Shown here: positions 15,225 through 32,961 of the stretch, piece after piece | How the letters are laid out: every line of letters begins with the position of its first letter | Numbering within the stretch: the first letter of the stretch is position 1 | Assembly (NCBI GenBank): GCA_964550035.1 | Contig: CAZJVU010000001.1 | Location: forward strand, 19,990 to 83,989 | Direction of reading: 5' to 3' | DNA from: an uncultured Candidatus Saccharibacteria bacterium | GTDB taxonomy: Bacteria > Patescibacteriota > Saccharimonadia > Saccharimonadales > EFPC-124 | Length of the DNA: 64,000 bases | The notes under the pieces: model-generated | The model's database searches: none | What the model was told of the DNA's origin: nothing | Seen by the model: only the letters and a program-made list of their open reading frames with translations | Translations under genes and position numbers: made by a program

Positions 15225-17018
15225 ATGTCTACTGATTCTATTCGAAATTTCTGTATCATCGCCCACATTGACCACGGCAAGAGCACGCTCGCGGATCGCC
15301 TCTTGGAATTGACCGGCACCGTCGACAAGCGCGATATGAAGGCACAGCTCCTCGACAAGATGGACCTCGAGCGTGAAAAGGGAATTACCATCAAGCTCGC
15401 TCCAGTCCGCATGGAGTATCAGGGGTACGAGCTAAACCTCATCGACACGCCCGGTCACGTTGACTTTAGCTATGAGGTGTCGCGAAGCCTCGAAGCCTGC
15501 GAAGGTGCACTGCTTGTCGTGGACGCCACGCAGGGAATCCAGGCGCAGACACTTGCCAATGTGTATCTGGCAATGGCGGCTGACCTCACGATCATTCCTG
15601 TGCTCAACAAGATTGACCTCCCTGCCGCCGATGTCGACAAAGTAAGTGCCGAGATTATTAGTTTGCTTGGGTGCGATAAAGACGACATTCTGCATATCTC
15701 AGCCAAGACCGGCCAAGGCGTCGATGCTGTGCTGGATAAGATTATTCGTGAGGTTCCGGCGCCAACGTTATCTGAAAACCAGACCACAAGAGCGCTTATA
15801 TTCGACAGTTACTATGACGATTACCGTGGCGTTGTCTTGTACGTCCGTGTCGTTGATGGCGAAATCAAAAAGGGCAGTCAGATACGGATGCTTGCCACAA
15901 ACGCCGATGGTATCGCGCTCGAAGTTGGCGCGCTCAAGCCGGCTATGTCGCCAAACAATGCCCTACTCACGGGCGAAATCGGCTACATCGTAACAAACCT
16001 CAAGTCAACGCGTGAGGCAAAGGTTGGTGATACAGTCACACTAGTGGTCGCCCATGATACCGCCTCCTCTGCTAAAATTGTACCACTCCCCGGCTACAAA
16101 GACGTCCAGCCATTCGTCTACGCTGGATTTTTCCCAGAGAGCAACGAGTTCTACCAGGAGCTGAAGGACGCGGTTGAGAAGTTAAGTTTGAGCGATTCGG
16201 CGCTGCAGTTTGCGCCAGAGAATTCGCCTGTGCTGGGCTTCGGCGTGCGTATTGGATTCCTCGGGTTGCTCCACATGGACATTGTGCGCGAGCGATTGGA
16301 GCGTGAGTATAACTTGAGTCTCATTGTTACGAACCCAAGTACTGATTATCATGTATTGCTACTAAATGGTGACGAGCTCGACATCAAATCAGCTTCTGAC
16401 CTCCCCGACCCGGCGCAGATCCGTGAGATCCGTGAGCCGTGGATTAAGGGCGAGATCGTCGTGCCGCACGAATATGTCGGTGGTGTCATCCAGCTTGTCG
16501 TGAGCAAGCGCGGCGTTCATAAGAACTTGAGCTATGTGGATCAGCGCGCACTGGTGAGTTTCGAAGCGCCATTGGCGAACCTGCTGACTGACTTTTACGA
16601 TCAGCTGAAGAGCATCACGAGCGGCTACGGATCGTTCAACTACGAGCTGGCAGATTACCATGCCGAGGATCTGGTGCGACTGGACTTCTATATTTCTGGC
16701 GAGAAGGTTGATGCGCTGAGTATTATGGTGCACCGCAGCGAGGCACAAGGCTTGGGTCGCGAAACGGTCTCCAAGCTAAAAGAAGTTATCCCGAGACAGA
16801 ACTTCCAGGTTGCGCTGCAAGCAGCGATTGGCGGTAAATTTATCGCGCGCGAAGACATCAGCGCCTATCGTAAAGATGTTACGACGGGACTATACGGTGG
16901 TGACGTGAGCCGTAAAAAGAAAGTTCTGGCTAAGCAGGCCAAGGGTAAGAAACGCATGAAACGATTTGGCAAGGTTGATATCCCGGCCGAGGCGTTTATG
17001 GTGCTGCTCAAGAAGTAG
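15225..17018 (+). CDS. lepA: Elongation factor 4 (LepA)
   Basis: IRNFCIIAHIDHGKSTLADRLL G-domain, DTPGHVDF, NKID, and a conserved LepA C-terminus. Confidence 0.97.
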   Translation: MSTDSIRNFCIIAHIDHGKSTLADRLLELTGTVDKRDMKAQLLDKMDLEREKGITIKLAPVRMEYQGYELNLIDTPGHVDFSYEVSRSLEACEGALLVVDATQGIQAQTLANVYLAMAADLTIIPVLNKIDLPAADVDKVSAEIISLLGCDKDDILHISAKTGQGVDAVLDKIIREVPAPTLSENQTTRALIFDSYYDDYRGVVLYVRVVDGEIKKGSQIRMLATNADGIALEVGALKPAMSPNNALLTGEIGYIVTNLKSTREAKVGDTVTLVVAHDTASSAKIVPLPGYKDVQPFVYAGFFPESNEFYQELKDAVEKLSLSDSALQFAPENSPVLGFGVRIGFLGLLHMDIVRERLEREYNLSLIVTNPSTDYHVLLLNGDELDIKSASDLPDPAQIREIREPWIKGEIVVPHEYVGGVIQLVVSKRGVHKNLSYVDQRALVSFEAPLANLLTDFYDQLKSITSGYGSFNYELADYHAEDLVRLDFYISGEKVDALSIMVHRSEAQGLGRETVSKLKEVIPRQNFQVALQAAIGGKFIAREDISAYRKDVTTGLYGGDVSRKKKVLAKQAKGKKRMKRFGKVDIPAEAFMVLLKK

Positions 17019-17625
17019 ACTTGTTGGGGAAGTAGTCTGGGTGTTGCTCGAGAATGCCGATAAGCTCTTTGTAGAGCTCGGCGATTTCTGGAGATACGGT
17101 AACTTTGTTTGATTTGTAGGTTTGGAGTTCTTCGAGATCAATGCCGTGCATGTGCCAGGCTTTTCCTTCTGCAACAACATTTAAAACCATGGGCGCAAGC
17201 TTATCGAGTGCATACACGAAGCGGCTTTCGATGTCCTCTCGAGCCTCATATGCAGCAATGGCTGCGTGTAGCTCACTGAAATCTGGCCATGAATCGTGGA
17301 GCTTTTCGCGGGCAACTCGTTCTCGCTCGGCTTTACTATCGTGTACGTTTTGGTCTTTAGAGAACGCGAATGTATCACCAGCGTGAAGCTCGACAATGTC
17401 GTGCGCCATGGCATAGCGAATGCATTTATTCGTATCGAGGTGCTCGATATTGCTCGCAATAAACCACGCTAGCATGCCCAGTGCATAGCTATGCTCGGTA
17501 TCGGTTTCGGGACGGTCCTTGCGGTGCGGTGTATCGGGGAGGAAGACCTGCCGATCGATACCATTGAACGCCACGAGTAGCCGGTAGAGATCAATAACGC
17601 GCTCGATTTTTGGGAGAGTACTCAT
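17008..17625 (-). CDS. HD-domain phosphohydrolase (YfbR-like 5'-nucleotidase family)
   Basis: ETDTEHSYALGM...AMAHDIVELHAGD gives the H...HD...D metal motif. 205 aa. Immediately downstream of the giant gene. Confidence 0.7.
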   Translation of the reverse strand: MSTLPKIERVIDLYRLLVAFNGIDRQVFLPDTPHRKDRPETDTEHSYALGMLAWFIASNIEHLDTNKCIRYAMAHDIVELHAGDTFAFSKDQNVHDSKAERERVAREKLHDSWPDFSELHAAIAAYEAREDIESRFVYALDKLAPMVLNVVAEGKAWHMHGIDLEELQTYKSNKVTVSPEIAELYKELIGILEQHPDYFPNKSTS

Positions 17626-17652
17626 AGATCGATTGTACGCTTTAGGACGAGG

Positions 17653-20600
17653 TTATTGAATAACCTGATAGTACCACTTGTAAACAGTAGAACCGTTAAG
17701 GGAGGATGATGAAGTGGCGATAGAGAAGTTGGTTGTGGTTGCACTGCCACTGTCGACATATGATTTGACCGAAGCGGCATCCGCACTTGCGGGGGTGAGC
17801 GTGACTCGTGGGGTAGCGCCGAAAGCCTTATTGAAGCTGACGGTTGCGAGTTTGCCGTCTGCGGTACATCCTGCACCGGTTGTGAGTGTGATGAGCCCAG
17901 CAGTGTCGGTACCACTCACGCTGACGGACGAGCCGCTACAGGCGTCGGCGCCGAGGCTAACAGTTGGTGCTCCGCCACCGGAAATGATGTGACCATTCAC
18001 CGTTAGCTGTGTGGTGGTCAGATTGTCGGTTACGACCAGGTTCTTGATGGTTGCATTGCCGGTAATGTTGATGTCGCCAAATGTCGGGTTGTTTTGCAGG
18101 CTCTGACTTGGGTCGCTGTAGCCTAGGTTGACGAACAGCTCAATGGTGCCAGTACCACTGGCAAGACTGTCGAGTGCCGTACCGATTGTCGTACCAGCTC
18201 CAGTTGCTTTCATGGCGTAACCGGGCTTAGTGGCTGAAGCGGTTAACGGATCACCTGGTTTGATGGCGCCATTCTCGGCAGATACTTTGACCGGAACGTG
18301 ACCTTTCAGCGCGAGTGGTGCGCCAGTGGTATTGCCAGAAAGGATAACGCCTGGATTTGTCGATACAACACCAGCAAGCTTAGAGGTGTACGGTGTCGTC
18401 GTTTTCTCAAGCTTTCTGTCATCGGTAAAGGCAACGACATCGCCCGGCTCGACCGACTCAGCGGTTTCGTAATTTTCTGCAACGTCGGCTGGCGTGCCGA
18501 TGGTTGTCGAGCCGTCGGTGAATATGTTTCCATTGGCTTGGACTTTGAACTTAAGGTTGGCAGTACCGCCGACGTCAGAGTAGAGGTCAAGCAAGTCGGC
18601 CGTTGTCGAGGAGGTTTGGCGGTAAGCCCCGATCGGGATGGCTGTATCGGTAATGCTGAGCGAGTATGACGAGCTATACGTACCAGTTCCGACGAGCATC
18701 CTCGTTGCCTTGGCCACATTATTGCTTGAGTCGACAGAGAACACAGAGGAGCCGGCAAGATTCTGTACCTGGAAGGCGGTTAGGCTGTTAAAGCGTGGTT
18801 TCACGGTTACTTCATTGTTGGAGTTGATGCTTATGGCGCCCGCTGTCGCACTTGGGCTCGAGACGGTATCATACACTCCATAGACACTGAAAGCGTCAGT
18901 GCCTGTGCTTGTCGCGCTGAAGCTACTTGGGAAGTTGCTGCCGTAGGTCATATTTACAAAGGCGCTGTTTGTCTCACCGGTGTTGACGCCGTAGTTTGTG
19001 CCTGAGCCATCGATATTGAAGGCGAGCCAGTAGTTGGTATTGGCTGCCAGCGAGACGCTCGTGCCTAAGGAGAGCGTGTTCCAGCCTACTGTGACGACGG
19101 TCGATGACGCAGTAGCGCTCGAGAGGAGTGTTCCTGGCGTGCCGCTCGAGTCGGAGTAGATCGCAACCTTTGCGTGGTTACTTGGCGAGGCTTGGACGAA
19201 TTCGAAGTAGGCTTTGAGCGAACTCAAGGTGCCACCTGAGCCGGAGTTGAACTTGGAAGCGCTGATCTGGCCGTTGTTGCCGCTGTCGGTTGTGTCGCCA
19301 CTGCTGGCATTACCGATGACGTTGGCGCCACCGAGTTTGAGCGTATTGTCGGTTGCATCGACCCGGAGCGTGTATTGGTCGCTTACGCTCGAGTTACCTA
19401 CGACGAGTGCACCACTGAATTTGGTGGTGTTCAGGAATGCTGCTGTGCCCGCCACCGACAAGGTGTCGCCCATAGTAACAGATTGGGCAAAGGTAGCCTT
19501 GTCTTGAACGTTGAGGGAGCCAACGATGTTGGTATTGCCGGCAGTCAGCATGCCACCGGTATTGCCTTCGGTCTCATTTGCGTTTGCGCCACCATAGGTA
19601 GTGAGGTCGAGCCCGCCGCCAATCTTTACGCGCGGCGTGCTCGTGTAATAGACCGAATTTCGAACGGTGCCACCACCATCAACCGCGTTGCTACCACCGA
19701 TGACGTAGAAGTATCCGTTTGCTTGCGCCATGCCAGCTTCACCGACTTGTCCGCCGGGGAAAGTAGTGAGTGGTTGAGCCGTCCCAGGGGCGCCGTTTGT
19801 GCCAGTAAGCGGGAAGGCGGTTACGCGACTGCCAGCATCACCACCGACTGCATAGAGATAGCCGTTGGCAACGTATGTTTCGAAGTTTTCATCGCCACCA
19901 CCCGGAACTACACCTGATGAAGTTGTAGCCCAGGTGCCAAGCGTGCCGCTGCTGGCAATCTTGGAGTAGCTAATGCTGTCGGCATCTGAGCCGCCCACAA
20001 AGCCACCTACCAGGTAGACATAGCCATTCGCAACGATTGCATTGACATTTGCGGTCGTGCTGGAGAGCGCTGTGTTGGTTGTCCATGAGCCGCTGCCAAG
20101 TGTGCCATCGGCGTTTACCTTTGCCGAATAAACGGTGGTCTGAGCTGTCGGTGTGGCGTTGAAGCCACCGATGACGTAGATGTAGCCATTGTAGTAGACG
20201 GTACCGCTTCCGAAACGGGGACTCGGCAGTGGTAAGCCGGTGCTCCATGTGCCAATGCTGCCATCAGCATTTAGCTTAGCGTAGTAGGAGGCTGACGAGG
20301 CGGCGTTGCTGTTGTCGCGACCACCGATCACGTAGATGTAGCCGTTTGCGACAACCGGCTGGAACTGGCGAAGGGAGTTTGGCAATGCATTGCTGTTTGT
20401 CGTCCAGCTGCTCAGCGTACCATCGGCGTTCTGCTTGGCGTATTGGACGGTTGCGACCGTTGCGCCGTTGCTGTCGACGCCACCCAGCTGGTAGATATAG
20501 CCGTTTGCTGCGATTGCGCCCCCGCGGACACGAGGCGTGCTGCTGCTTGTGCCGGGCGCACTGAGGGCGCTCGTGGTTGTCCAGGTGCTGAGCGCTGAGC

Positions 20601-23600
20601 TGTTGTTGCCAAGGAGCGAAATGGTATTTCCGCTTGTGTCGACGGTCAGCAGGCTTTGCGAGCTGCTGTTTTGAACCTGGAAGGCGGTGGCGCTATCGAC
20701 TTTGACCGTTGCGGTGCCGTTCACGGCCAGCCCGCCAGCGGTGACGGTGCTTGCTACGGCGAGTGTCCCGGTGAAGTTGGCCGCGCTGCTGATGGTCTGG
20801 CCATTAACGGTGCCGGCGGCTGTGACATTGCCTGCTGGGTTGACGCTGAACTTACTGGAGCCATTGAGCTGGAGGTCGATTAAGTTTCCTGTGCCGCTAG
20901 CATTCGTGTTGTTGACGGTCAGCATTGCGGCAGATGCTTGGCTGGAAGTGAGCGTCAGCTGGCCGAAGGTTGGCGCAGCAGTTGTGTTGATGTTCTGGAT
21001 GGTATTGATGGTGCCGGATGAAGCGCTGAAGTTTGTGTTGTTGAACTGCGCAATACCCTTCTGACTCGTCGATGCGTCGTTGATGGTGATGGTGCTTCCT
21101 GCGGTGCCTGCGTTCGCAAGCGTGAGTGCGCCGGTCAGGCTGTTGAGGCTGGTGACGCCAGAGCCGGTTGTGGCACAGGTTGGGCAGGTGAGATTTCCGC
21201 TGGCGTCGAGTGCGAGCGGCCCTGAAGCCGACACGGCAACTGTTCCTGAAGCATTTGGAATGGTGATGGTCTTGTTGGCACTCGACGGTGTAGCGAATGT
21301 CAGGGTGTTGGTGATGCCGCCCGATGTGCTTGTGAGGCTGACGCTTGCGCCTTGGAGCGTGAGATTCTGGGCGGTCGCGCCGACGGTCATTGCAGCGCTT
21401 GGCGTGATGGTATTAACGGCAAGCGTACCGCCGATAGTGACGGTTGAGCCGTTATCGGTGATGATAGAGTCGCCGATCGCCTGGCTGCCTGTGAATTTGG
21501 CGATCTTGTTCGTGGTGCCTCCGGCGGTCGTGACGCCACCGCCCACGCCTGCGCAGTTGCCAGCGGTTGTGCAGATGTCGTACGTGCCCGCTGCGGTTGT
21601 CAGGAGGCGGTACGTGACGCTGGCGGTTGGATTCTGGAAGGCCAGGCTTGTCGTGTTGGCGCCGTTTGTCGCGCTGATGGTACTGCTGGCATTGCCTTGG
21701 AGCGTGTAGCTTTGGTTTGTGGCGCCGACAGTGAGGGATGAGTTTGGCGTGATGGTGTTGGCGGTTAATGTGCCCGTAACGGTCGCGCCGCCGTTGAGGC
21801 TGGCGGTACTTGCGACCGTCAGGCTACCGGTGAAGTTCGCACTACTGCTAATGGTCTGGCCATTGACCGTGCCGCTGAGTGTCAGCGCGCCGGCCGGCGA
21901 GACGGCGAATTTGCTCGAGCCATTGAGCTGCAGATCTACTAAGTTGCCTGTTGCGCTGGCGTTTGTATTGTTGACGGTCAGCATCGCTGCAGTTGCCTGG
22001 TTGGACGTGAGCGTCAGCTGGCCGAACGTTGGGGCGGCTGAAGTGTTGATGTTCTGGACGGTGTTGACGATGCCAGTGCTGACGCTAAAGTTCGTGCCAT
22101 TGAACTGCGAGATGCCCTTCTGACTGGTCGATGCGTCGTCGATGGTTATGATGCTGCCGCTGCCACTTGCGTTGGCGATGGTTAGGGCACCGGTCAGGCT
22201 GTTCAGGGAGCTGACGTTTGCGCCGGTTGAGCAGGTTGGGCACGAAATATTGCCGCTGGAATCGATGGCGAGCGGGCCACTGGCGCTGACGACGAGTGTG
22301 CCAGAAGCATTTGGAATGGTAATTGTCTTGTTGCTGCCGCTCGGCGTGGCAAATGCCAGTGTGTTGGTGATGCCGGAAGCAGTGCTCGTCATGTTGACGC
22401 TTGCGCCTTGGAGTGTCAGGTTCTGAGAGGTCGAACCGACGGTGAGCGCGGCCGTTGGCGTCAGCGTATTGACTGCCAGCGTACCGCCGATGGTGACCGT
22501 GCTGCCGTTGTCGGTGATGATCGAATCAGCGATCGACTGACTGCCGCTAAATTTCGCCAGCTTGTTCGTCGTACCGCCAGGTGTCGTGACGCCACCGCCC
22601 ACGCCCGCGCAGTTGCCGGCGGTCGTACAAACGTCGTACGTTCCGGCCGCCGCGGTCAAGAAGCGGTAGGTAACATTCGCGGTTGGTGCTTGGAAGGCCA
22701 AGCTCGTCGTGTTGGCGCCGCTCGTTGCCGTGATAGTGCTGGTGGCGCTGCCTTGGAGGAGGAAGCTCTGGCCGGTCGCCCCGACGGTCAGTGAGCTGCT
22801 CGGCGTGATAGTGTTGGCCGTAAGCGTCCCGGCAACTGTTGCGCCACCATTGAGGTTTGCCGCACCGGCGACTGTCAGGCTACCAGTGAAGTTAGCGGCG
22901 CTGCCGATTGTCTGGCCATTGACGGTACCAACCAGCGTCATATTGCCGGCGGGGTTGACTGACATCTTGCTGGTACCGTTCAGCTGCAAGTCAATCAAGT
23001 TGCCCGTGCCACTGGAGTTGGTGTTGTTGATGAGCAGCATGGCACTGCTAGCCTGGCTACTCGTGACGGTCAAGCGACCAAATGTTGGGGCCGAGCTGAC
23101 CGCAATATCTTGGATAGTGTTGACCACACCGCTGCTGACGCTGAAGTTGGTGCTGTTGAATTGGGCCAGACCTTTCTGAGACGTCGATGCGTCGTTGATG
23201 GTGATGGTCGAGCCCGCGCCGCTCGAATTGGCGATTGTGATCGCGCCGGTCAAGCCGTCGACGCTATCGACCGCGGCCACACCGCCGCCACCGCCACCGC
23301 TGGTGACGCAGGTTGGGCAGGTCAAGTTTCCGCTGGCGTCGAGCACGAGCGGACCAGATGCCGACACAGCGAGCGTGCCAGACGCGTTCGGTACGGTGAC
23401 CATTTTGCTGCTGCCGCTTGGCGTGGCGAAGACGATGCTGTTGGTGATGCCACCCGATGTGCTTGTGAGGCTGACGCTTGCGCCTTGGAGTGTGAGGTTC
23501 TGAGCCGTAGAGCCGACGGTCATTGCGGCGCTTGGCGCGATCGTATTGACCGCCAGGCCGCCGCCGATAGTGACCGTGCTGCCATTGTCGGTGATGATGG

Positions 23601-26600
23601 AGTTCGCGATCGTGCCAGTGCCAGTGAACTTGGCGATTGTACCAGCGGTACCGCCAGGCGTTGTAACGCCGCCACCGATGCCCGTACAGTTGCCGACGCT
23701 CGTACAGATGTCGTAGGTGCCAGCAGTTGCGGTGAGGAGTCGGTAGGTAACGCTGGCGGTTGGATTCTGGAAGGCGAGCGTGGTGCTGCTAGCACCAGAT
23801 GTTGCGCTGATGGTGCTACTGGCGTTGCCCTGCAAGGTGAAGCTTTGACTTGTGGCACCGACGGTCAATGCGCCGGTCGGCGTGATGGTGTTGGCGGTGA
23901 GTGTGCCCGTAACGGTCGCGCCGCCGTTGAGGTTGGCCGCACCGGCAACGGCAAGCGTACCGGTGAAGTTGGCGGCGCTGCTGATCGTCTGGCCGTTAAT
24001 GGTTCCACTGAGCGTCAGCGCACCAGACGGTGCAACGGCAAATTTGCTCGTCCCAGCGAGCTGCAGGTCGAGCAGATTCCCAGACGCACCTGAGTTGGTA
24101 TTGTTTACCGTGAGCATTGCGGCGGTCGGCTGACTGGACGTGAGTGTCAGCTGGCCGAACGTTGGAGCGGCGGTGCTGTTGATGTTTTGGACGGTGTTGA
24201 CAATGCCGCCGGCCGAGGTGAAGTTCGTACCGTTGAACTGCGCAATACCCTTCTGGCTGGTCGATGCGTCGTTGACGGTGATGACGCCGCCCGCACCGCT
24301 CGAATTGGCGATGGTGATCGCGCCGGTCAAGCCGTCCAAGCTGGTCACCGCCGTGCTACTCGTGATGCACGTTGGGCAGGTCAAGTTACCGCTGGCATCG
24401 AGCACGAGTGGACCGCTGGCGCTGACCGCGAGGGTGCCGTTGGCATTAGGAATGGTGATGGCTTTGTTGCTGCCACTTGGTGTCGCGAAGATGAGCGAGT
24501 TTGTCGAAGCGCCGTTGGTGCTCGTCATGGTGACGGTGGCGCCTTGCAGGGTCAGATCTTGGCCGACGGCACCGATGGTCATGCTGGCGCTTGGCGTGAT
24601 CGTGTTGACCGCTAACCCGCCGCCGATCGTCACGACACTACCGTTATCGGTGATGATAGAGTCGCTGATTGTGTTACCGCCGCTGAATTTAGCGATCTTG
24701 TTGATTGTGCCGCCAGGTGTCGTGACGCCACCGCCAATACCGACGCAGTTACCGGCCGTCGTACAGACATCGTAGGTGCCGGCCGCGGCAGTGAGGAATC
24801 GATACATTACATCAGCGGTTGGCGTCTGGAAGGCAAGTGTTGTGCTGCTGCCACCGTTGGTGCTTGTGATGGTGCTGCTGGCATTACCCTGCAGGAGGAA
24901 GCTCTGGCTGGTGACGCCGACCGTCAGTGCGCCGCTTGGCGTGATCGTATTGGCGTTCAATGTGCCGGCCACTGTCGCGCCACCATTAAAGTTGGCTGCG
25001 CCTGCAACGGCGAGTGTGCCAGTGAGATTGGCGGCACTACTGATCGTTTGGCCGTTGACTGTGCCGCTCAGTGTCAGCGCTCCAGCTGGGTTGACCGCGA
25101 AGCGACTATTGCCGGTGAGCTGCAGGTCGAGCAAGTTGCCGGTCGCGCTCCCATTGGTATTGTTGACAGTCACCATATTGGCAGTTGCCTGAGCTGACGT
25201 GAGCGTCAGCTGGCCGAATGTTGGAGCCGCTGTTGCATCGATGTTCTGAACGGTGTTGATAGTGCCGCTGGTGGAGGTGAAGTTGGTCGCGTTGAATTGC
25301 GCAATACCTTTTTGACTGGTCGATGCGTCGTTGATAGTGATAGTGCTGCCCGACGCGCCCGCATTGGCAATAGTGAGCGAACCCGTCAGACCATTCAGAC
25401 TGCTAACACTGCCGCCTCCACCACCGCCAGTACAGCCGCTGATGTCGCAGATGACCGTGCCGCCGATGCGGTAGCTGTGGCCCGCGGTGATGTTAATATC
25501 GCCGTTGACCTCGAGTGGGTAGGCAGGGATGGTCGATTCGTTGATGGCGACGTGGTTGCTATTTGCTGCATTCAGGAAGATGGTACCCGTGCCGCCGGCG
25601 TCCAGCCAGAGGTTGTTCGAACCGCCATCGACGTGCAGGTTGCCGTCGTTGTAGATCTGCCCGATGACGCTGTTGGTTGTGCTGCTGAGGCTGATTGTGC
25701 TGGTGGGGCCATCATTCAGACTGAGTGTGCCACCCACAGCCAGGCCGCCGTTGATCGCAACATCGGTTGCGGTTTGGCTGAGGAGCGAATCGGCGAGCTG
25801 GTTTGTGCCACTGAACACCGCAATACGTCCGGCGGTTCCGCCCGATGACTGGACGTTGTTGGCGCTCGTTGGTGACTCGCCAAGCGTGATGTTGCCGCTG
25901 CCGTCATCGCTGACGGTCAGGTTGGTGCTGGCCGATGTGATGCTGATGATGCCAGTGTTGGTCAGTTGGCTGCCGTTCAGGCTCAAGCCGCCGCCAAGGG
26001 TGAGCGAGCCCGAAACGCCATTGATGCTCGTGACGGTTTGCGGATTGTTGGTGAGCGATACGAAACCACTGCCGTTATAGTAGTTCAGCTGGTTCGTCTC
26101 GCGGTCATAGTACATCTGACCGGCAACGCCGTTTTGTGGTTTTGCCGTTGGCGAAAGGACGAATGAGCTATTGACCTTTAGCTGTCCGTTGACGCTCAAT
26201 GTCCGTGACGGGTCGGTGCTGAGCTGGCCAGCAAGTGAGAGCTCGCCAAGGGGAATATTGAGGGTGTTGAACTGGCCGGCCGAGATGGCTTTGTCGGCCG
26301 AGCGCAGAGACGCATGGCTGACCAGTCGCATTGTGACGATCGCGCCGCCAACTAGGATTGCTAATATAATTGCGCCGACGAGAATCCACCGAGGCTTCAC
26401 GCGCCAGCCACGAAGTGGGCGTGCTGGCGACGTGGGAACCTGCTGCGGTGGGGTTTGGGGAGACTCGAGAGACGGTGTTGGCGATGCAGGAATAGGGGTG
26501 GGTGATGCTGGCGACTGTGCCGGTCGCTGGACATCAAAAGGCGTCGAAACGAGATCGCTCCGACTGCTAACATTTGGCACACCCCTAGTGTTTTGAGTTT

Positions 26601-26610
26601 CGTTTTCCAC
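17653..26610 (-). CDS. Giant (2,985 aa) membrane-anchored surface protein: tail-fibre-like repeats, Kelch propeller and C-terminal lectin-like modules
   Basis: Single uninterrupted ORF from a GTG start. It has a Pro-rich cytoplasmic N-terminus, one TM span (WILVGAIILAILVGGAIVTMRLV), and 5 repeats carrying ASTSQKG(I/L)(A/S)QF and CPTC. There are six ANGY(I/V/L/F)Y..GG Kelch-like blades. The tail contains DVAENYETAESVEPGDVVAF. Confidence 0.9.
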   Translation of the reverse strand: MENETQNTRGVPNVSSRSDLVSTPFDVQRPAQSPASPTPIPASPTPSLESPQTPPQQVPTSPARPLRGWRVKPRWILVGAIILAILVGGAIVTMRLVSHASLRSADKAISAGQFNTLNIPLGELSLAGQLSTDPSRTLSVNGQLKVNSSFVLSPTAKPQNGVAGQMYYDRETNQLNYYNGSGFVSLTNNPQTVTSINGVSGSLTLGGGLSLNGSQLTNTGIISITSASTNLTVSDDGSGNITLGESPTSANNVQSSGGTAGRIAVFSGTNQLADSLLSQTATDVAINGGLAVGGTLSLNDGPTSTISLSSTTNSVIGQIYNDGNLHVDGGSNNLWLDAGGTGTIFLNAANSNHVAINESTIPAYPLEVNGDINITAGHSYRIGGTVICDISGCTGGGGGGSVSSLNGLTGSLTIANAGASGSTITINDASTSQKGIAQFNATNFTSTSGTINTVQNIDATAAPTFGQLTLTSAQATANMVTVNNTNGSATGNLLDLQLTGNSRFAVNPAGALTLSGTVNGQTISSAANLTGTLAVAGAANFNGGATVAGTLNANTITPSGALTVGVTSQSFLLQGNASSTITSTNGGSSTTLAFQTPTADVMYRFLTAAAGTYDVCTTAGNCVGIGGGVTTPGGTINKIAKFSGGNTISDSIITDNGSVVTIGGGLAVNTITPSASMTIGAVGQDLTLQGATVTMTSTNGASTNSLIFATPSGSNKAITIPNANGTLAVSASGPLVLDASGNLTCPTCITSSTAVTSLDGLTGAITIANSSGAGGVITVNDASTSQKGIAQFNGTNFTSAGGIVNTVQNINSTAAPTFGQLTLTSSQPTAAMLTVNNTNSGASGNLLDLQLAGTSKFAVAPSGALTLSGTINGQTISSAANFTGTLAVAGAANLNGGATVTGTLTANTITPTGALTVGATSQSFTLQGNASSTISATSGASSTTLAFQNPTASVTYRLLTATAGTYDICTSVGNCTGIGGGVTTPGGTAGTIAKFTGTGTIANSIITDNGSTVTIGGGLAVNTIAPSAAMTVGSTAQNLTLQGASVSLTSTSGGITNSIVFATPSGSSKMVTVPNASGTLAVSASGPLVLDASGNLTCPTCVTSGGGGGGVAAVDSVDGLTGAITIANSSGAGSTITINDASTSQKGLAQFNSTNFSVSSGVVNTIQDIAVSSAPTFGRLTVTSSQASSAMLLINNTNSSGTGNLIDLQLNGTSKMSVNPAGNMTLVGTVNGQTIGSAANFTGSLTVAGAANLNGGATVAGTLTANTITPSSSLTVGATGQSFLLQGSATSTITATSGANTTSLAFQAPTANVTYRFLTAAAGTYDVCTTAGNCAGVGGGVTTPGGTTNKLAKFSGSQSIADSIITDNGSTVTIGGTLAVNTLTPTAALTVGSTSQNLTLQGASVNMTSTASGITNTLAFATPSGSNKTITIPNASGTLVVSASGPLAIDSSGNISCPTCSTGANVSSLNSLTGALTIANASGSGSIITIDDASTSQKGISQFNGTNFSVSTGIVNTVQNINTSAAPTFGQLTLTSNQATAAMLTVNNTNASATGNLVDLQLNGSSKFAVSPAGALTLSGTVNGQTISSSANFTGSLTVASTASLNGGATVTGTLTANTITPNSSLTVGATNQSYTLQGNASSTISATNGANTTSLAFQNPTASVTYRLLTTAAGTYDICTTAGNCAGVGGGVTTAGGTTNKIAKFTGSQAIGDSIITDNGSTVTIGGTLAVNTITPSAAMTVGATAQNLTLQGASVSLTSTSGGITNTLTFATPSSANKTITIPNASGTVAVSASGPLALDASGNLTCPTCATTGSGVTSLNSLTGALTLANAGTAGSTITINDASTSQKGIAQFNNTNFSASSGTINTIQNINTTAAPTFGQLTLTSSQASAAMLTVNNTNASGTGNLIDLQLNGSSKFSVNPAGNVTAAGTVNGQTISSAANFTGTLAVASTVTAGGLAVNGTATVKVDSATAFQVQNSSSQSLLTVDTSGNTISLLGNNSSALSTWTTTSALSAPGTSSSTPRVRGGAIAANGYIYQLGGVDSNGATVATVQYAKQNADGTLSSWTTNSNALPNSLRQFQPVVANGYIYVIGGRDNSNAASSASYYAKLNADGSIGTWSTGLPLPSPRFGSGTVYYNGYIYVIGGFNATPTAQTTVYSAKVNADGTLGSGSWTTNTALSSTTANVNAIVANGYVYLVGGFVGGSDADSISYSKIASSGTLGTWATTSSGVVPGGGDENFETYVANGYLYAVGGDAGSRVTAFPLTGTNGAPGTAQPLTTFPGGQVGEAGMAQANGYFYVIGGSNAVDGGGTVRNSVYYTSTPRVKIGGGLDLTTYGGANANETEGNTGGMLTAGNTNIVGSLNVQDKATFAQSVTMGDTLSVAGTAAFLNTTKFSGALVVGNSSVSDQYTLRVDATDNTLKLGGANVIGNASSGDTTDSGNNGQISASKFNSGSGGTLSSLKAYFEFVQASPSNHAKVAIYSDSSGTPGTLLSSATASSTVVTVGWNTLSLGTSVSLAANTNYWLAFNIDGSGTNYGVNTGETNSAFVNMTYGSNFPSSFSATSTGTDAFSVYGVYDTVSSPSATAGAISINSNNEVTVKPRFNSLTAFQVQNLAGSSVFSVDSSNNVAKATRMLVGTGTYSSSYSLSITDTAIPIGAYRQTSSTTADLLDLYSDVGGTANLKFKVQANGNIFTDGSTTIGTPADVAENYETAESVEPGDVVAFTDDRKLEKTTTPYTSKLAGVVSTNPGVILSGNTTGAPLALKGHVPVKVSAENGAIKPGDPLTASATKPGYAMKATGAGTTIGTALDSLASGTGTIELFVNLGYSDPSQSLQNNPTFGDINITGNATIKNLVVTDNLTTTQLTVNGHIISGGGAPTVSLGADACSGSSVSVSGTDTAGLITLTTGAGCTADGKLATVSFNKAFGATPRVTLTPASADAASVKSYVDSGSATTTNFSIATSSSSLNGSTVYKWYYQVIQ
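20650..25450 (-). repeat. About 4.5 tandem copies of a ~1.06-kb in-frame coding repeat inside the giant gene
   Basis: The marker TCGATGCGTCGT recurs at 21069, 22128, 23184, 24261 and 25320, giving periods of 1059, 1056, 1077 and 1059 bp. Shadow ORFs in the track (21080, 22142, 23195, 24140) repeat with the same period. Boundaries are approximate. Confidence 0.85.
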
Positions 26611-26710
26611 CTATTTGTTTTGAAACATTTTGTGTTTCTATAGTCTCTCACTAACTAATATACTGCTTACGGTTTGGGAAGGCAAGCTATCTTTTAGCCT
26701 TTTACGAGGC

Positions 26711-26993: not shown

Positions 26994-27277
26994 CTATTTA
27001 CCCGCAGCAAATGCCGTATCGATATCAATAAAAAGCGTCACTTCGTTATTCTTCACCTTCACGATCCCATGCTGAATAGGGAAACTTAACATCTGATAAC
27101 CGGTGTTGACCACAATATCTCCCTCGGTCAGAAGCGAGAAAAAGTTGGCATGGTCAGCCAGTATATCGAATGGCCCAACCTTATTGGTGGCCGACACGGC
27201 CAGCGCTGGCCCATCGTAGAGTGTCTGGGTCGGCGAGAGCACGCGGGCGCGGAGTCGAGGTTCGCCTTTGAGCTTCA

Positions 27278-27278
<1 letters not shown>
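26994..27278 (-). CDS. atpC: F1 ATP synthase epsilon subunit (short form, beta-sandwich only)
   Basis: 94 aa. Positioned directly after atpD with an ATGA-type overlap. LRARVLSPTQTLYDGPA...VKVKNNEVTLFID fits the epsilon N-terminal domain. No C-terminal helical hairpin. Confidence 0.75.
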
Positions 27279-29447
<2,169 letters not shown>

Positions 29448-29451
<4 letters not shown>

Positions 29452-30875
29452 TTTGTGGCGCCTCCCATCGTGCTGAGTTCGAGTAGTTGCTGGACGGCTT
29501 TGTCGATGTCTTCGTCTTTCTCTATGCTCGGGCTCATCTCGCGCACTTTCATCTTGAGCAGACCGATATTGAGCTTACGCTGGCCGGCTGCCTCGAGGAC
29601 GGTCGAGAGGATGAGCTCTTGTTCGGTAAGAGTAAAGAGCTCGCCCGGTGTCTGGCGGAATGCTTCGTTGAGCTGCTGGCCGAGCTGCAGTGCCTGCATT
29701 GTTTCGGGTGCCATGTCGGCACCGAAGTGCGAGAATTCAGAGGCTTGGCGATACGCGGCAAGGCTCTTGAAGAGTGTGCCGGAGATTTTCTTCTGACGAG
29801 CGTTTTGTGCGCGACCGCCCACACGCGAGACAGAAAGGCCGGCGTTGATGGCTGGCTTGATGTTCTGGCGGAACGTGGCGAGGTCAAATATAAGCTGACC
29901 GTCAGTGATGGACATAATGCTTGTCGGCAGATAAGCCGTGATGTCATCGCCCGGAGTTACGACGGCTGGCAGCGCGGTGAGCGTCTTGCCGTTAGCGGCG
30001 AGTTTGCCGGCGCGCTCGAGCAGCGACGAATGCGCGTAGAACATGTCGCCCGGGTAGCTGTCGCGGCCTGGGTTGACCTGGGCAAGGAGCGAAACTTCGC
30101 GGTACACCTTGGCGTGCGAGCTGAGATCGTCGTAGATGATCACCACATCGCGGCCGTGATACCACAGATATTCGGCGATCGAGCAGCCAACGTATGGCGC
30201 GAGGTAACTTTGCGCTAGCGAGTCGAAGATGTTGGCCACCACCACGATGCTGTTGTTGATAGCGCCAGTTTCGTTCAGGCGGTTTAGGAGCGAATCGATT
30301 TCCAGGCGACGTTTACCGATTAGCACATACACCACGATGCGATCCGTCCCAACCTGGTTGACGCCGAGCTGCGTGAGGAAGCTTGTCTTGCCGGACTTCG
30401 TGTCGCCCAGCACGGCAATGCGCTGACCGAGCACGACCGAGAACATCATGTCGACCATCGTCACACCCGAAGCGAGCTGATCCTTGAGGATAGCGCGGTC
30501 CATGATACCAGGCGCTCTGTTGAAGACCGGCCAGTTTTCTTCGAAACGGACTGAGCCTTTGCCGTCGAGCGGCTGGCCCAACGGATTGATGACGCGGCCA
30601 ATCAACGCATCGCCAACGCCGGTGGTGAGAACGTTGTTCTGCAGGACAACGAGGCTGCCGAGCTGCGCGTTTTCGGACTCGAGATTCAGGATAAGAACAG
30701 TTTCGGCGCCAACTTCGCGTACCATACCTTGTTGGCCGTTTTCGAATAGCACGAGGGCGTTACTTGAAATTCCGTCGAGCCCTTTTACGGTCACCAGGAA
30801 GCGATCGACGCCGACAACTTCACCGGTTGGCTGGCCAGCTTCGACGAGTTTCTGGAAGAGGTTGTTATCGTACAC
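29448..30875 (-). CDS. atpA: F1 ATP synthase alpha subunit
   Basis: Walker A GDTKSGKT. I place the start at GTG 30875, 8 nt after GGAGAT and overlapping the atpH stop, rather than at the track start 30995, which would lie inside atpH. Confidence 0.9.
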
Positions 30876-31362
30876 TGTTGTAGATCTCCGAAATGCGTGA
30901 TTTGTGCGAAAGGATTTGCTCGCGGAACGACCAGTTGTAGACGTGCGAGCCGGCTTGGACGATGACTCCACCGCCGATGTCGGCACGCGTGGCAAAGGTG
31001 AGAAGCGCGTAGGGATGGATTTCGGTCCGGAACCAGTCAGTAAGCTTGCGCTTGAGGTCGCGGTTGGGAAGGGCGGCCATCATGAGATGGACGGCTGGAG
31101 CTTTGTCGCGAATAGCCTCGAGCTCTTTAAGGAGCTTTTCGGCTGCTGGTTGGTCGGTTGGCGTGATGGCGGATTCGTGCAGGACGCCAAGGAGGAGCGC
31201 AGATGTGTGCGCTGGTGCGCCGACCGTCGCATGCGTTGCTTTGGCGCGGACGTTTGCATCCCGAAGCGAGCTAATATGACCGCGCAGCTCGATGATAATC
31301 GCACTAAGTTGCTCAGGCGAGTAGAGGTCAAGCGGAAGGTGAACAGCGGCATCCGCGGTCAT
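30865..31362 (-). CDS. atpH: F1 ATP synthase delta subunit (OSCP)
   Basis: 165 aa in the operon position between b and alpha. The C-terminal ...ATRADIGGGVIVQAGSHVYNWSFREQI is OSCP-like. Confidence 0.75.
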   Translation of the reverse strand: MTADAAVHLPLDLYSPEQLSAIIIELRGHISSLRDANVRAKATHATVGAPAHTSALLLGVLHESAITPTDQPAAEKLLKELEAIRDKAPAVHLMMAALPNRDLKRKLTDWFRTEIHPYALLTFATRADIGGGVIVQAGSHVYNWSFREQILSHKSRISEIYNSVR

Positions 31363-31983: not shown

Positions 31984-32829
31984 TTATGTGCTTAACACCA
32001 AATATATAGCAATAAGCATTACCAGTAAAATACCGAGCGCCGTTGCCCCGACCTCGAACAAGCTCTTTCGGACTGCGCCTTCGCTGAGCGGGTTGCGGCC
32101 GATACTGATAATGCTAGAACGAGTAGACGAGTAGAGCAGCACGGCAATGCTTATGAACCCAAAGGCCAACACGAGCGTGCTGACGAGTACTCGCACTGGT
32201 GAGACATCTTTGCCAGCAACGGAGTTAGCAAGCGACTGGAGGAAGGGCGGCAGGAACGTGTTCTTTTCTTCGGGCGCGGCATAGTAGGTGACGTTGATTT
32301 GGACGGGGAGGGCGCCGACCTTGACTGTCTGTGGCTTGCCTTCTTTGTCGGTGATAGTGCGGCTAGCCGTCTCGACGGATTTGAGGTCAACCTGCGCCGT
32401 GCCGACCACCAGCGAGCTGGAGCTGGCGTGCATGCCGATGCCGTTGATAGGCGAGGCGGTGATCTTGTCGCCGGCCTTTATATCGCCATTGATATCGCTC
32501 ACAAGTGTGACGGTTGTGCCGCTGATGACAACTTGCGCTTCCTTATCATTTTTATTGCTGAGCTCGATGAGCGGCTTGTCGCCGATAACGCCGACGAGCT
32601 GGTTAACCCGGTCGATATTGGTGAGCTCAATAGTATTCTGCGAGCCAGATGTCAGGCTTACCAGTGCTCCCGTCGCCAGGTCGGTCTCGCTTGTCTTAAA
32701 TCCTTGCGAGATGGCCGCGGTACTATCGGCACGTGCTGGGCCTAGCGTAAAGAATCCCATAAACAGTGCCACCAAAAAACCCAGAACCCAGGGTATACGA
32801 TTTTTCGGTTGCCATGCGCTCAGCGACAT
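31984..32829 (-). CDS. Signal-peptide protein with a ~200-aa extracytoplasmic domain and a C-terminal c-subunit-like helical hairpin; first gene of the atp operon
   Basis: ATG 32829. Signal peptide is ...FFTLGPARA/DS. The C-terminal 70 aa form two TM helices joined by the loop SIGRNPLSEGAVRKSLF, which resembles the (A/G)R(Q/N)P loop of Fo c subunits. It occupies the slot where atpB-atpE normally sit. Confidence 0.5.
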   Translation of the reverse strand: MSLSAWQPKNRIPWVLGFLVALFMGFFTLGPARADSTAAISQGFKTSETDLATGALVSLTSGSQNTIELTNIDRVNQLVGVIGDKPLIELSNKNDKEAQVVISGTTVTLVSDINGDIKAGDKITASPINGIGMHASSSSLVVGTAQVDLKSVETASRTITDKEGKPQTVKVGALPVQINVTYYAAPEEKNTFLPPFLQSLANSVAGKDVSPVRVLVSTLVLAFGFISIAVLLYSSTRSSIISIGRNPLSEGAVRKSLFEVGATALGILLVMLIAIYLVLST

Positions 32830-32961
32830 CAAGACCCACCATTAGTGCTTATGGTTAACATTATAACTTACAAACTTAATAATACCTCATGACGCTTGCG
32901 GTTAAGACGTAATTTTAATAAACTGAAACATTAGTAGGGTAGTAACTAAAAGGTAGAGGTT

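Follow-up and report, generated by a model that had tools for sequence, protein, structure and literature searches.

We describe a giant gene in a 64,000-nucleotide (nt) stretch of DNA, hereafter the window, from an uncultured Candidatus Saccharibacteria bacterium (assembly GCA_964550035.1, contig CAZJVU010000001.1, positions 19,990 to 83,989). The gene occupies window positions 17653..26610 and, like all of its parts discussed below, is read from the minus strand; it encodes 2,985 amino acids followed by a stop codon. On the evidence of sequence comparison and structure modeling, a C-proximal module of this protein, running from DVAENYE to GDVVAF, is a beta-tulip domain of the Peptidase G2 type and a predicted autochaperone, related to domain D4 of the phage phi29 protein gp12, and it scores below the threshold of the corresponding Pfam family, PF11962. 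With moderate confidence, we interpret the whole product as a membrane-anchored, probably trimeric fibre that would assemble in the manner of a phage tailspike, would likely cleave itself, and would serve in adhesion or host recognition.

The Peptidase G2-like beta-tulip domain

The domain spans residues 2709-2835 (18106..18486) and is the most widely shared part of the protein, as about 114 of the 120 database matches listed cover residues ~2750-2850. Many homologues end at the position equivalent to residue 2829, right after the domain, which is what would be expected of a removable C-terminal chaperone. Among 37 aligned homologues, eight match PF11962, with a best E-value of 6e-10, and the region of residues 2709-2835 is itself matched by the tail-fibre family phrog_19602 (E 9e-6). 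AlphaFold2 (AF2) models residues 2711-2831 with a predicted local distance difference test score (pLDDT) of ~97. A Foldseek search of BFVD, a set of predicted viral structures, with a multi-domain model returned 59 matches at E<=1e-3, among them a “Preneck appendage protein” (E 1.7e-8, TM-score on target 0.61), tail-fibre proteins, and a [quoted passage not shown] The domain is also shared by phage proteins of the collagen-repeat and fibre kinds in this database. In the PDB, the best Foldseek matches are decoration or cement proteins of HFTV1, TW1, Borrelia phage BB1, and T1, together with the phi29 head fibre. The matches to decoration proteins have E-values of 1.4e-3 to 7e-3 and TM-scores on target of up to 0.62, with the aligned query residues not reported. 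Such proteins are the expected top matches, because the D4 autochaperone of gp12 consists of tandem beta-tulip domains that are structurally similar to capsid decoration proteins (Stone et al., bioRxiv 10.1101/216911).

The predicted autocleavage site, TPA|DVAE, lies between A2708 and D2709, whose codons occupy 18484..18489. In the phi29 record, gp12 reads ...TW-S691-D692-F-A-E695-YF, and the hidden Markov model (HMM) of our domain family aligns to gp12 residues 660-854 with 18.7 bits, so that D2709 and E2712 fall on D692 and E695. S691|D692 is reported to be the cleavage site of gp12, and D692 and E695 are reported to be needed for cleavage; the identities of these residues agree with the phi29 record. 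Of 118 homologues, 115 have the D, 116 the A, and 114 the E of the D-x-A-E motif, and D-x-[AS]-E occurs in all 33 members of the giant-protein family that carry a G2 core, a degree of conservation that would be hard to explain without catalysis. Cleavage between A2708 and D2709 is predicted to yield the semi-tryptic peptide DVAENYETAESVEPGDVVAFTDDR, and the upstream part would end in ...STTIGTPA.

An earlier note on this DNA, made from the sequence alone, had listed the DVAENYE...GDVVAF module without naming it; the module is present as listed, and its identity as a domain of the G2 or gp12 D4 type is what that note missed. The phage connection had instead been placed in a different element, the ASTSQKG motif of the shaft, which was said to resemble the repeat of phage tail fibres. 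This motif does align with the first 12-20 residues of both repeats of P2 gpH (pairwise E 0.04), following the pattern DA(S/T)xxxKG(I/L)xQ(F/L). However, the rest of the 42-residue gpH repeat is absent here, and the Phage_fiber_2 model (PF03406) matches neither the module nor the motif stretch even at E<=10, whereas the P2 gpH control scores 129 bits. We therefore rejected membership in the tail-fibre repeat family, the similarity being confined to the length of the motif. Searches with tblastn against phage genomes gave no match for the shaft module or for the terminal domain in 50,697 records, and the motif stretch reached E 0.08-0.5 only. The G2 domain, by comparison, is found in 18 records, mostly from Campylobacter CP220-like phages. 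The suspected phage link was right in spirit and attached to the wrong element, the real one being the DVAENYE...GDVV module.

An Mtd-like match in BFVD also led us to consider a diversity-generating retroelement, a candidate that was rejected for this window. A comparison of the 3' 3 kb of the gene with the rest of the window found no template-like repeat, and no long open reading frame (ORF) with a YxDD motif is present.

Membrane anchor, shaft, and distal domains

Residues 1-72 (26395..26610) form a Pro-rich tail, with 15 Pro among 72 residues, that is predicted to be cytoplasmic and ends in RPLRGWRVKPR, an Arg/Lys cluster on the N-side of the transmembrane span. This span, at residues ~75-95 (26326..26388), is the sole strongly hydrophobic one (Kyte-Doolittle 19-residue mean up to 2.73) and is predicted to act as a signal-anchor; the positive-inside rule and the hydropathy profile suggest an N-in, C-out topology. 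The Pro-rich N-terminus and single span agree with what had been reported before. The proximal ectodomain that follows (residues 96-398, 25417..26325) is specific to the family, 80 of whose 148 best representatives match it. It ends in CDISGC (residues 388-393), and over its final third it is similar to the latter half of a shaft module.

The shaft proper consists of four tandem modules of 352-359 residues, rich in Thr, Ser, Gly, Ala, and Asn (residues 399-1815, 21166..25416), each of which carries ASTSQKG, NLxDLQL, CxxxGNC, and CPTC, and of a fifth module represented by its first ~145 residues only (residues 1816-1960, 20731..21165). The earlier note had counted five modules of about 355 residues, each with conserved Cys pairs. 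The ASTSQKG motif indeed occurs five times (residues 429, 782, 1141, 1493, and 1846), while C(T/S)xxGNC (residues 616, 969, 1328, and 1680) and CPTC (residues 745, 1098, 1457, and 1809, with CDISGC as a related form) occur four times each, because there are four full modules and one fragment. Across residues 96-1990, Thr, Gly, Ser, Ala, and Asn make up 64% of the sequence and charged residues 4.6%. The repeat period is 1056-1077 nt, and identity between the full modules is 71-78% for the protein and 69-75% for the DNA. By codon position, identity is 83-89% at position 2 and 46-54% at position 3, which shows the duplications to be old and under purifying selection; the modules are neither recent copies nor collapsed assembly repeats.

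None of the models in Pfam, NCBIfam, or PHROG matches the 353-residue module, and a search of the protein against NCBIfam gave no match. Two sub-threshold matches offer weak hints of a beta-helical shaft with Cys pairs that possibly bind metal or form disulfides: residues 875-937, within a module, match Bactofilin, a beta-helical fold (E 0.0024, 18.5 bits against a cut-off of 27.9), and residues 1448-1461, at a CPTC pair, reach 23 bits with a C2HC zinc-finger model whose cut-off is 27. Each module also has one copy of a further sub-motif, NL(L/I/V)DLQL.G.S(K/R)(F/M)(A/S)V, which is similar to the DLLDLYSDVGG..KFKV found just before the predicted cleavage site.

Beyond the shaft, a connector (residues 1961-2020, 20551..20730) with AFQVQN...VDTSGN at residue 1976 leads into the Kelch region (residues 2021-2330, 19621..20550). 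Six xNGYxYxxGG units begin at residues 2035, 2088, 2140, 2194, 2248, and 2297, spaced by 49-54 residues within residues 2035-2310. With the Pfam model Kelch_1 (PF01344, clan CL0186), the region reaches 37 bits, the cut-off being 20.1 (E 2.4e-9), and the PDB sequence matches include the designed six-blade protein SAKe6 (E 1.5e-32) and KLHL12 (E 1.6e-17). The six Kelch-like blades proposed earlier are thus solidly supported by sequence; their number is the one needed for closure, and they would form a closed propeller. The region shares with KLHL12, Keap1, and SAKe the six blades, the GG/Y/W signature, and significant sequence similarity; it differs from them in being placed midway along an extracellular fibre, without a BTB/BACK domain or an enzyme context. 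In several MAGs, separate ORFs of 1,300-1,560 residues composed mostly of Kelch-like repeats (L007:174-4844, L008:2-4513, L018:15640-20238, and L024:1-3954) are found within a few kb of giant genes that bear modules or are related to those that do; the propeller head could have such ORFs as its donors or partners.

A second short shaft or linker (residues 2331-2440, 19291..19620), modeled with low confidence (AF2 pLDDT 32-47), precedes a DUF4082-like beta-sandwich at residues 2441-2560 (18931..19290). Here AF2 places beta-strands with pLDDT 62-83, and PF13313 (DUF4082) matches with E 1.2e-5 and 25.8 bits, short of its gathering threshold of 28.4; two of the 37 homologues match the model at E<=0.01. 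The DUF4082-type sandwich named in the earlier note is accordingly retained in a weaker form, as a probable distant relative that falls below the threshold for membership. The next connector (residues 2561-2708, 18487..18930) reads DLLDLYSDVGG...KFKVQANGNIFTDG and runs to the predicted cleavage site, with AF2 pLDDT of 56-82 over residues ~2650-2708. The pattern AFQVQN..(G/S)..(L/F).VD.S.N occurs in both connectors, at residues 1976-2000 (~20611-20685) and 2612-2636 (~18703-18777), that is, upstream of the Kelch region and of the G2 domain; in homologues such as P0008 and P0022, it directly precedes the terminal domain.

The G2 domain is followed by a short stalk, INITGNATIKNLVVTDN...TVNGHIISGG (residues 2836-2880, 17971..18105), and by a terminal beta-sandwich of 105 residues (residues 2881-2985, 17656..17970), which contains Cys2891 and Cys2915, ends in YYQVIQ, and is modeled with pLDDT ~95. 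This end of the protein had been described as similar to H-type lectins. The resemblance recurs below threshold: PF09458 (H_lectin) matches with E 4e-4 and 20.9 bits against a gathering threshold of 24, and seven of 18 homologues match at E<=0.1, none of them above the cut-off. No H-type lectin structure appears among the 50 best PDB Foldseek matches of the multi-domain model, the terminal domain not having been searched alone, and a profile of the terminal domain (A4) finds no significant match among PDB sequences.

Gene integrity, family, and genomic context

The gene is real and intact. It forms the longest ORF in the window and remains open across 8,958 nt; the earlier note had likewise reported one gene of 2,985 residues, and every motif listed there was located in the translation. 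The GTG start abuts the TAG stop of a five-codon ORF at 26611-26628 on the minus strand (ATG TTT CAA AAC AAA TAG), the last base of which adjoins the GTG. The annotated start is supported by a partial homologue (P0126) that aligns from residue 1, covering residues 1-536 at 37% identity. Visual inspection showed no clear Shine-Dalgarno sequence at the start. There is a weak sigma-70-like site at 26685-26657, and such sites are no commoner here than in shuffled sequence; a scan for promoters and terminators gave counts at or below the shuffled expectation. Between 20001 and 26000, G+C content is 0.59-0.61, compared with a window average of ~0.55, and the plus strand has strong G-over-C and T-over-A skews, most simply a consequence of coding rich in Thr, Ser, Gly, Ala, and Asn.

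Window positions 16128-20334 are reproduced with 100% identity in two independent Logan assemblies (SRR9179560 and SRR9179562); this stretch comprises the C-terminal 893 residues (2.7 kb), the neighboring HD gene, and a portion of lepA. The two contigs end at 20334, inside Kelch blade 2, at a point within a 35-nt stretch (20312-20346, minus strand) that is 80-83% identical between Kelch blades. Near-identical stretches of this kind probably explain the frequent partial family members in databases.

When 1.84 billion cluster representatives were searched with a profile of the module, 583 clusters (defined at 50% identity) matched with E<=1e-3, and 232 of these reached E<=1e-30. The best 148 of the 583 have a median length of 2,503 residues and a maximum of 4,923, with 2-18 matched stretches each, and 121 of these 148 have a hydrophobic span within the first 250 residues. 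The giant protein shows the features of this family, namely an N-terminal transmembrane anchor, a proximal region, and tandem modules. Domains in the best 148 were counted by per-domain scoring, as whole-sequence bias correction suppresses HMMER matches in long biased proteins. By this count, 33 carry the G2 core, 44 the terminal domain (43 of them at the extreme C-terminus), and 22 both; the carriers of G2 mostly continue for ~150-190 residues after it. Members differ in whether they have the G2 cassette, a C-terminal cassette, both, or neither, and the number of modules varies widely. For instance, three relatives (L005, L012, and L014) combine modules, G2, and terminal domain as the giant protein does, while another (L013) has a Kelch region that is 59% identical and lacks both C-terminal domains. 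In one of the former (L005:1407-8942, plus strand, 2,512 residues), LVIVD repeats (Pfam E 8e-36) stand where the giant protein has its Kelch region. Anchor and shaft are therefore kept while distal domains are shuffled, a pattern expected of receptor-binding proteins.

The named database matches come nearly all from Saccharimonadales or Saccharibacteria. Similarly, a scan of the module alignment against one genome per species yielded 25 loci, nearly all in metagenome-assembled genomes (MAGs) of Candidatus Saccharimonadales or Saccharibacteria, with a best identity of 71%; on both counts, the family is nearly confined to Saccharimonadales. The earlier note had recommended comparison with giant proteins of other Saccharibacteria, and this comparison produced the large family described here, with five MAGs that share the locus. 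Upstream of the giant gene and on the same strand lie atpA, atpG, atpD, and atpC (26994-30995, minus strand). Five other Saccharimonadales MAGs (L004, L006, L009, L011, and L013) have the same order, atpA-atpG-atpD-atpC followed directly by a giant gene with the same N-terminal layout, which makes the giant gene a conserved chromosomal feature of the lineage. On the other side, a gap of 27 nt separates the giant gene from an HD_3 hydrolase gene read in the same direction, in keeping with the earlier remark that the gene is transcribed towards an HD hydrolase, and lepA lies beyond it in convergent orientation. No phage genes occur near the giant gene.

Two features of the locus were noted in addition. 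In two of the syntenic MAGs (L011 and L013), atpC and the giant gene are separated by an extra gene of 523-803 residues that is related to the proximal ectodomain. In the window, a gene at 31984-32832 (minus strand), immediately upstream of the atp genes, encodes a predicted membrane protein of 282 residues that has a hydrophobic segment at its N-terminus and hydrophobic helices at its C-terminus. The middle part of this protein matches the HMM of the G2 or beta-tulip domain (E 4.6e-16) and is 30% identical to residues ~2696-2823 of the giant protein, and Pfam gives only a weak match to TcpA (E 0.004). ORFs of 283-314 residues with the same G2 match occupy the equivalent place in four MAGs (L004, L009, L011, and L013).

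Proposed function and its alternatives

According to the mechanism we propose, the Pro-rich tail and one transmembrane helix would hold the protein in the membrane, and ~2,890 residues would be exported in the order shaft (the 300-residue proximal region and 4.4 modules), Kelch region, second shaft, DUF4082-like domain, beta-tulip, stalk, and 105-residue beta-sandwich. As in phage tailspikes with this chaperone, three chains would align in register, starting at their C-termini, and the G2 domain would cut at A2708|D2709 after trimerization, freeing a fragment of 277 residues. The propeller and beta-sandwich domains would bind ligands, probably glycans, and the protein would serve in adhesion or host recognition as a fibre with heads that lineages swap. 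Since this cleavage would remove the last 277 residues, the lectin-like domain need not be the covalent tip; after cleavage, it may stay bound, as release in phi29 reportedly needs ATP, or be shed with the chaperone.

A trimeric fibre is suggested by the role that the chaperone has in phage spikes, by the fibre-like composition of the shaft, and by the phage collagen-repeat and fibre proteins that share the domain. A role in adhesion would be in line with adhesins reported from other Patescibacteria: they are required for the epibiotic growth of the cultured saccharibacterium Southlakia epibionticum (PMC10633639), and giant adhesin-like exoproteins have been described in Patescibacterium danicum (PMC11809585). 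The P. danicum proteins, which exceed 5,000 residues and carry FhaB domains, and the S. epibionticum adhesins resemble the giant protein in being very large, repeat-rich, and rapidly reshuffled surface proteins of epibiotic ultrasmall bacteria for which host contact has been proposed. In contrast, FhaB, VCBS, dockerin, and FN3 domains were not detected in the giant protein, and its family has a 353-residue module of its own, a Kelch or LVIVD head, and an autochaperone of phage type.

In the way that it would work, the giant protein comes closest to a phage tailspike or fibre with a G2 intramolecular chaperone, such as gp12, the pre-neck appendage of Bacillus phage phi29, whose D4 autochaperone is classified as MEROPS G2/PF11962. 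Both proteins have a long beta-rich fibre or spike before a C-proximal beta-tulip domain that begins with D-x-A-E, and S691|D692-F-A-E695 of gp12 corresponds to A2708|D2709-V-A-E2712 here. The giant protein differs in being cellular, membrane-anchored, and 3.5 times longer, and the beta-helix enzyme domain of pectin-lyase type was not detected in it. Moreover, its domain of ~127 residues compares with tandem tulips of ~163 residues in gp12, is followed by a stalk and terminal domain, would work outside the cell without ATP, and has a sub-threshold Pfam score.

Several of these observations weigh against a self-cleaving trimeric fibre. For the giant protein itself, the match to PF11962 amounts to 13.8 bits (E 0.04), short of the gathering threshold of 25, and covers positions 32-98 of a profile of 228. 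None of the PDB Foldseek matches reaches E<=0.001, and no significant match, to gp12 or otherwise, was found when PDB sequences were searched with residues 2607-2985 or with the family profile A1 (residues 2332-2985). The G2 domain is not terminal here, 150 more residues following it, so that cleavage would detach an apparent tip domain, and the presence of the terminal domain in 22 members without G2 suggests that this domain has a role of its own. In phi29, the release of the cleaved domain reportedly needs ATP inside the cell, which counts against the proposal for a domain that would act outside. A signal-peptidase-like S-H-A site after the transmembrane span means that the protein could be released rather than anchored. 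Modeling of single modules with AlphaFold, which the earlier note had advised, gave an unusable result: the AF2 monomer of module 1, built on a 12-row alignment, has a mean pLDDT of 48 and no secondary structure. The fibrous and trimeric nature of 60% of the protein is accordingly suggested by composition and analogy.

The most probable alternative is that the protein is a giant adhesin or envelope protein built as beads on a string, monomeric or non-fibrous, with a covalently attached tip and a G2 domain that does not cleave and has a purely structural or oligomerizing role. The position of the terminal domain at the extreme C-terminus in 43 of its 44 carriers, its independence of G2 in half of them (22), and the sub-threshold Pfam match of the giant protein agree with this view, as does the fact that beta-tulip domains also serve as plain interaction modules (bioRxiv 10.1101/216911). 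However, the conservation of D-x-A-E in ~97% of homologues and in 33 of 33 G2-bearing members, together with the many homologues that end right after the domain, leads us to regard it as rather unlikely. Still less probable, in our estimation, is a tailspike-like surface enzyme whose shaft or head domains degrade host cell-wall polymers, with adhesion as a secondary function. Kelch propellers include sugar-active enzymes, and phi29 gp12, whose assembly domain is shared by the giant protein, degrades teichoic acid; in addition, a homologue of the DUF4082-like region (P0009) carries a glycoside hydrolase family 6 domain. Against this stands the giant protein itself, in which searches of Pfam, NCBIfam, and PHROGs detected no catalytic domain, beta-helix, or pectate-lyase family.

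The PHROG tail-fibre match of the G2 domain and the many phage proteins among its BFVD matches might be taken to point to a tail-fibre gene of a phage or prophage, or to a component of a particle derived from a phage, instead of a surface protein of the cell. This is very improbable given the flanking ATP synthase, HD hydrolase, and lepA genes, the lack of phage genes nearby, the synteny kept across MAGs, the transmembrane anchor conserved in the family, and a module and terminal domain without counterparts in the 50,697 phage records searched; in IMG/VR, one contig only matches, and in the G2 part only. We therefore rejected a prophage origin on the strength of gene context and synteny. An assembly artefact, be it the collapse or expansion of repeats, a chimeric join, or an unnoticed frameshift, is hardly credible. 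Tandem repeats are a hazard for assembly, and the short-read Logan contigs do break within the Kelch region, but the repeat copies are just 64-79% identical in DNA, the frame is uninterrupted over 8,958 nt, relatives of 2,000-4,900 residues that share the order of parts are common, and the C-terminal 2.7 kb is identical in two other assemblies.

The self-cleaving, membrane-anchored fibre is thus the interpretation we prefer. A bolder version of it, which we put forward tentatively as a possibility of clearly lower probability, is a “cellular tail fibre”: a membrane-anchored trimer, assembled outside the cell by a self-cutting G2 domain, whose interchangeable heads of propeller or lectin-like type, Kelch and LVIVD among them, would set the host range. 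The length of such a fibre is perhaps ~100 nm, a rough guess from the number of residues per nm in the long tail fibres of T4.

Giant surface proteins are a known class in Patescibacteria. In the libraries and literature searched, we did not find a description of this module family, of its synteny with the atp genes, or of the combination of an autochaperone with a propeller head. Apart from type IV pili and a small number of adhesins implicated by genetics, little is understood of how ultrasmall Patescibacteria recognize and hold their host cells, and about one-fifth of the best-matching members of the present family carry an assembly domain of the phage-tailspike type. Should the proposed mechanism fail, the protein would be one more large repetitive adhesin-like protein of a kind common in the phylum. 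If it holds, a cell would here be maturing its fibres in the manner of a phage, a notion credited to the work on phi29 gp12 (bioRxiv 10.1101/216911) and little explored, and the cleavage site, the head domains, and the atp-adjacent locus would give work on the host range of soil Saccharimonadales concrete targets. If the bolder version were also true, the family would be the host-range determinant of its lineage, with the assembly logic of a phage at work in a cellular organelle.

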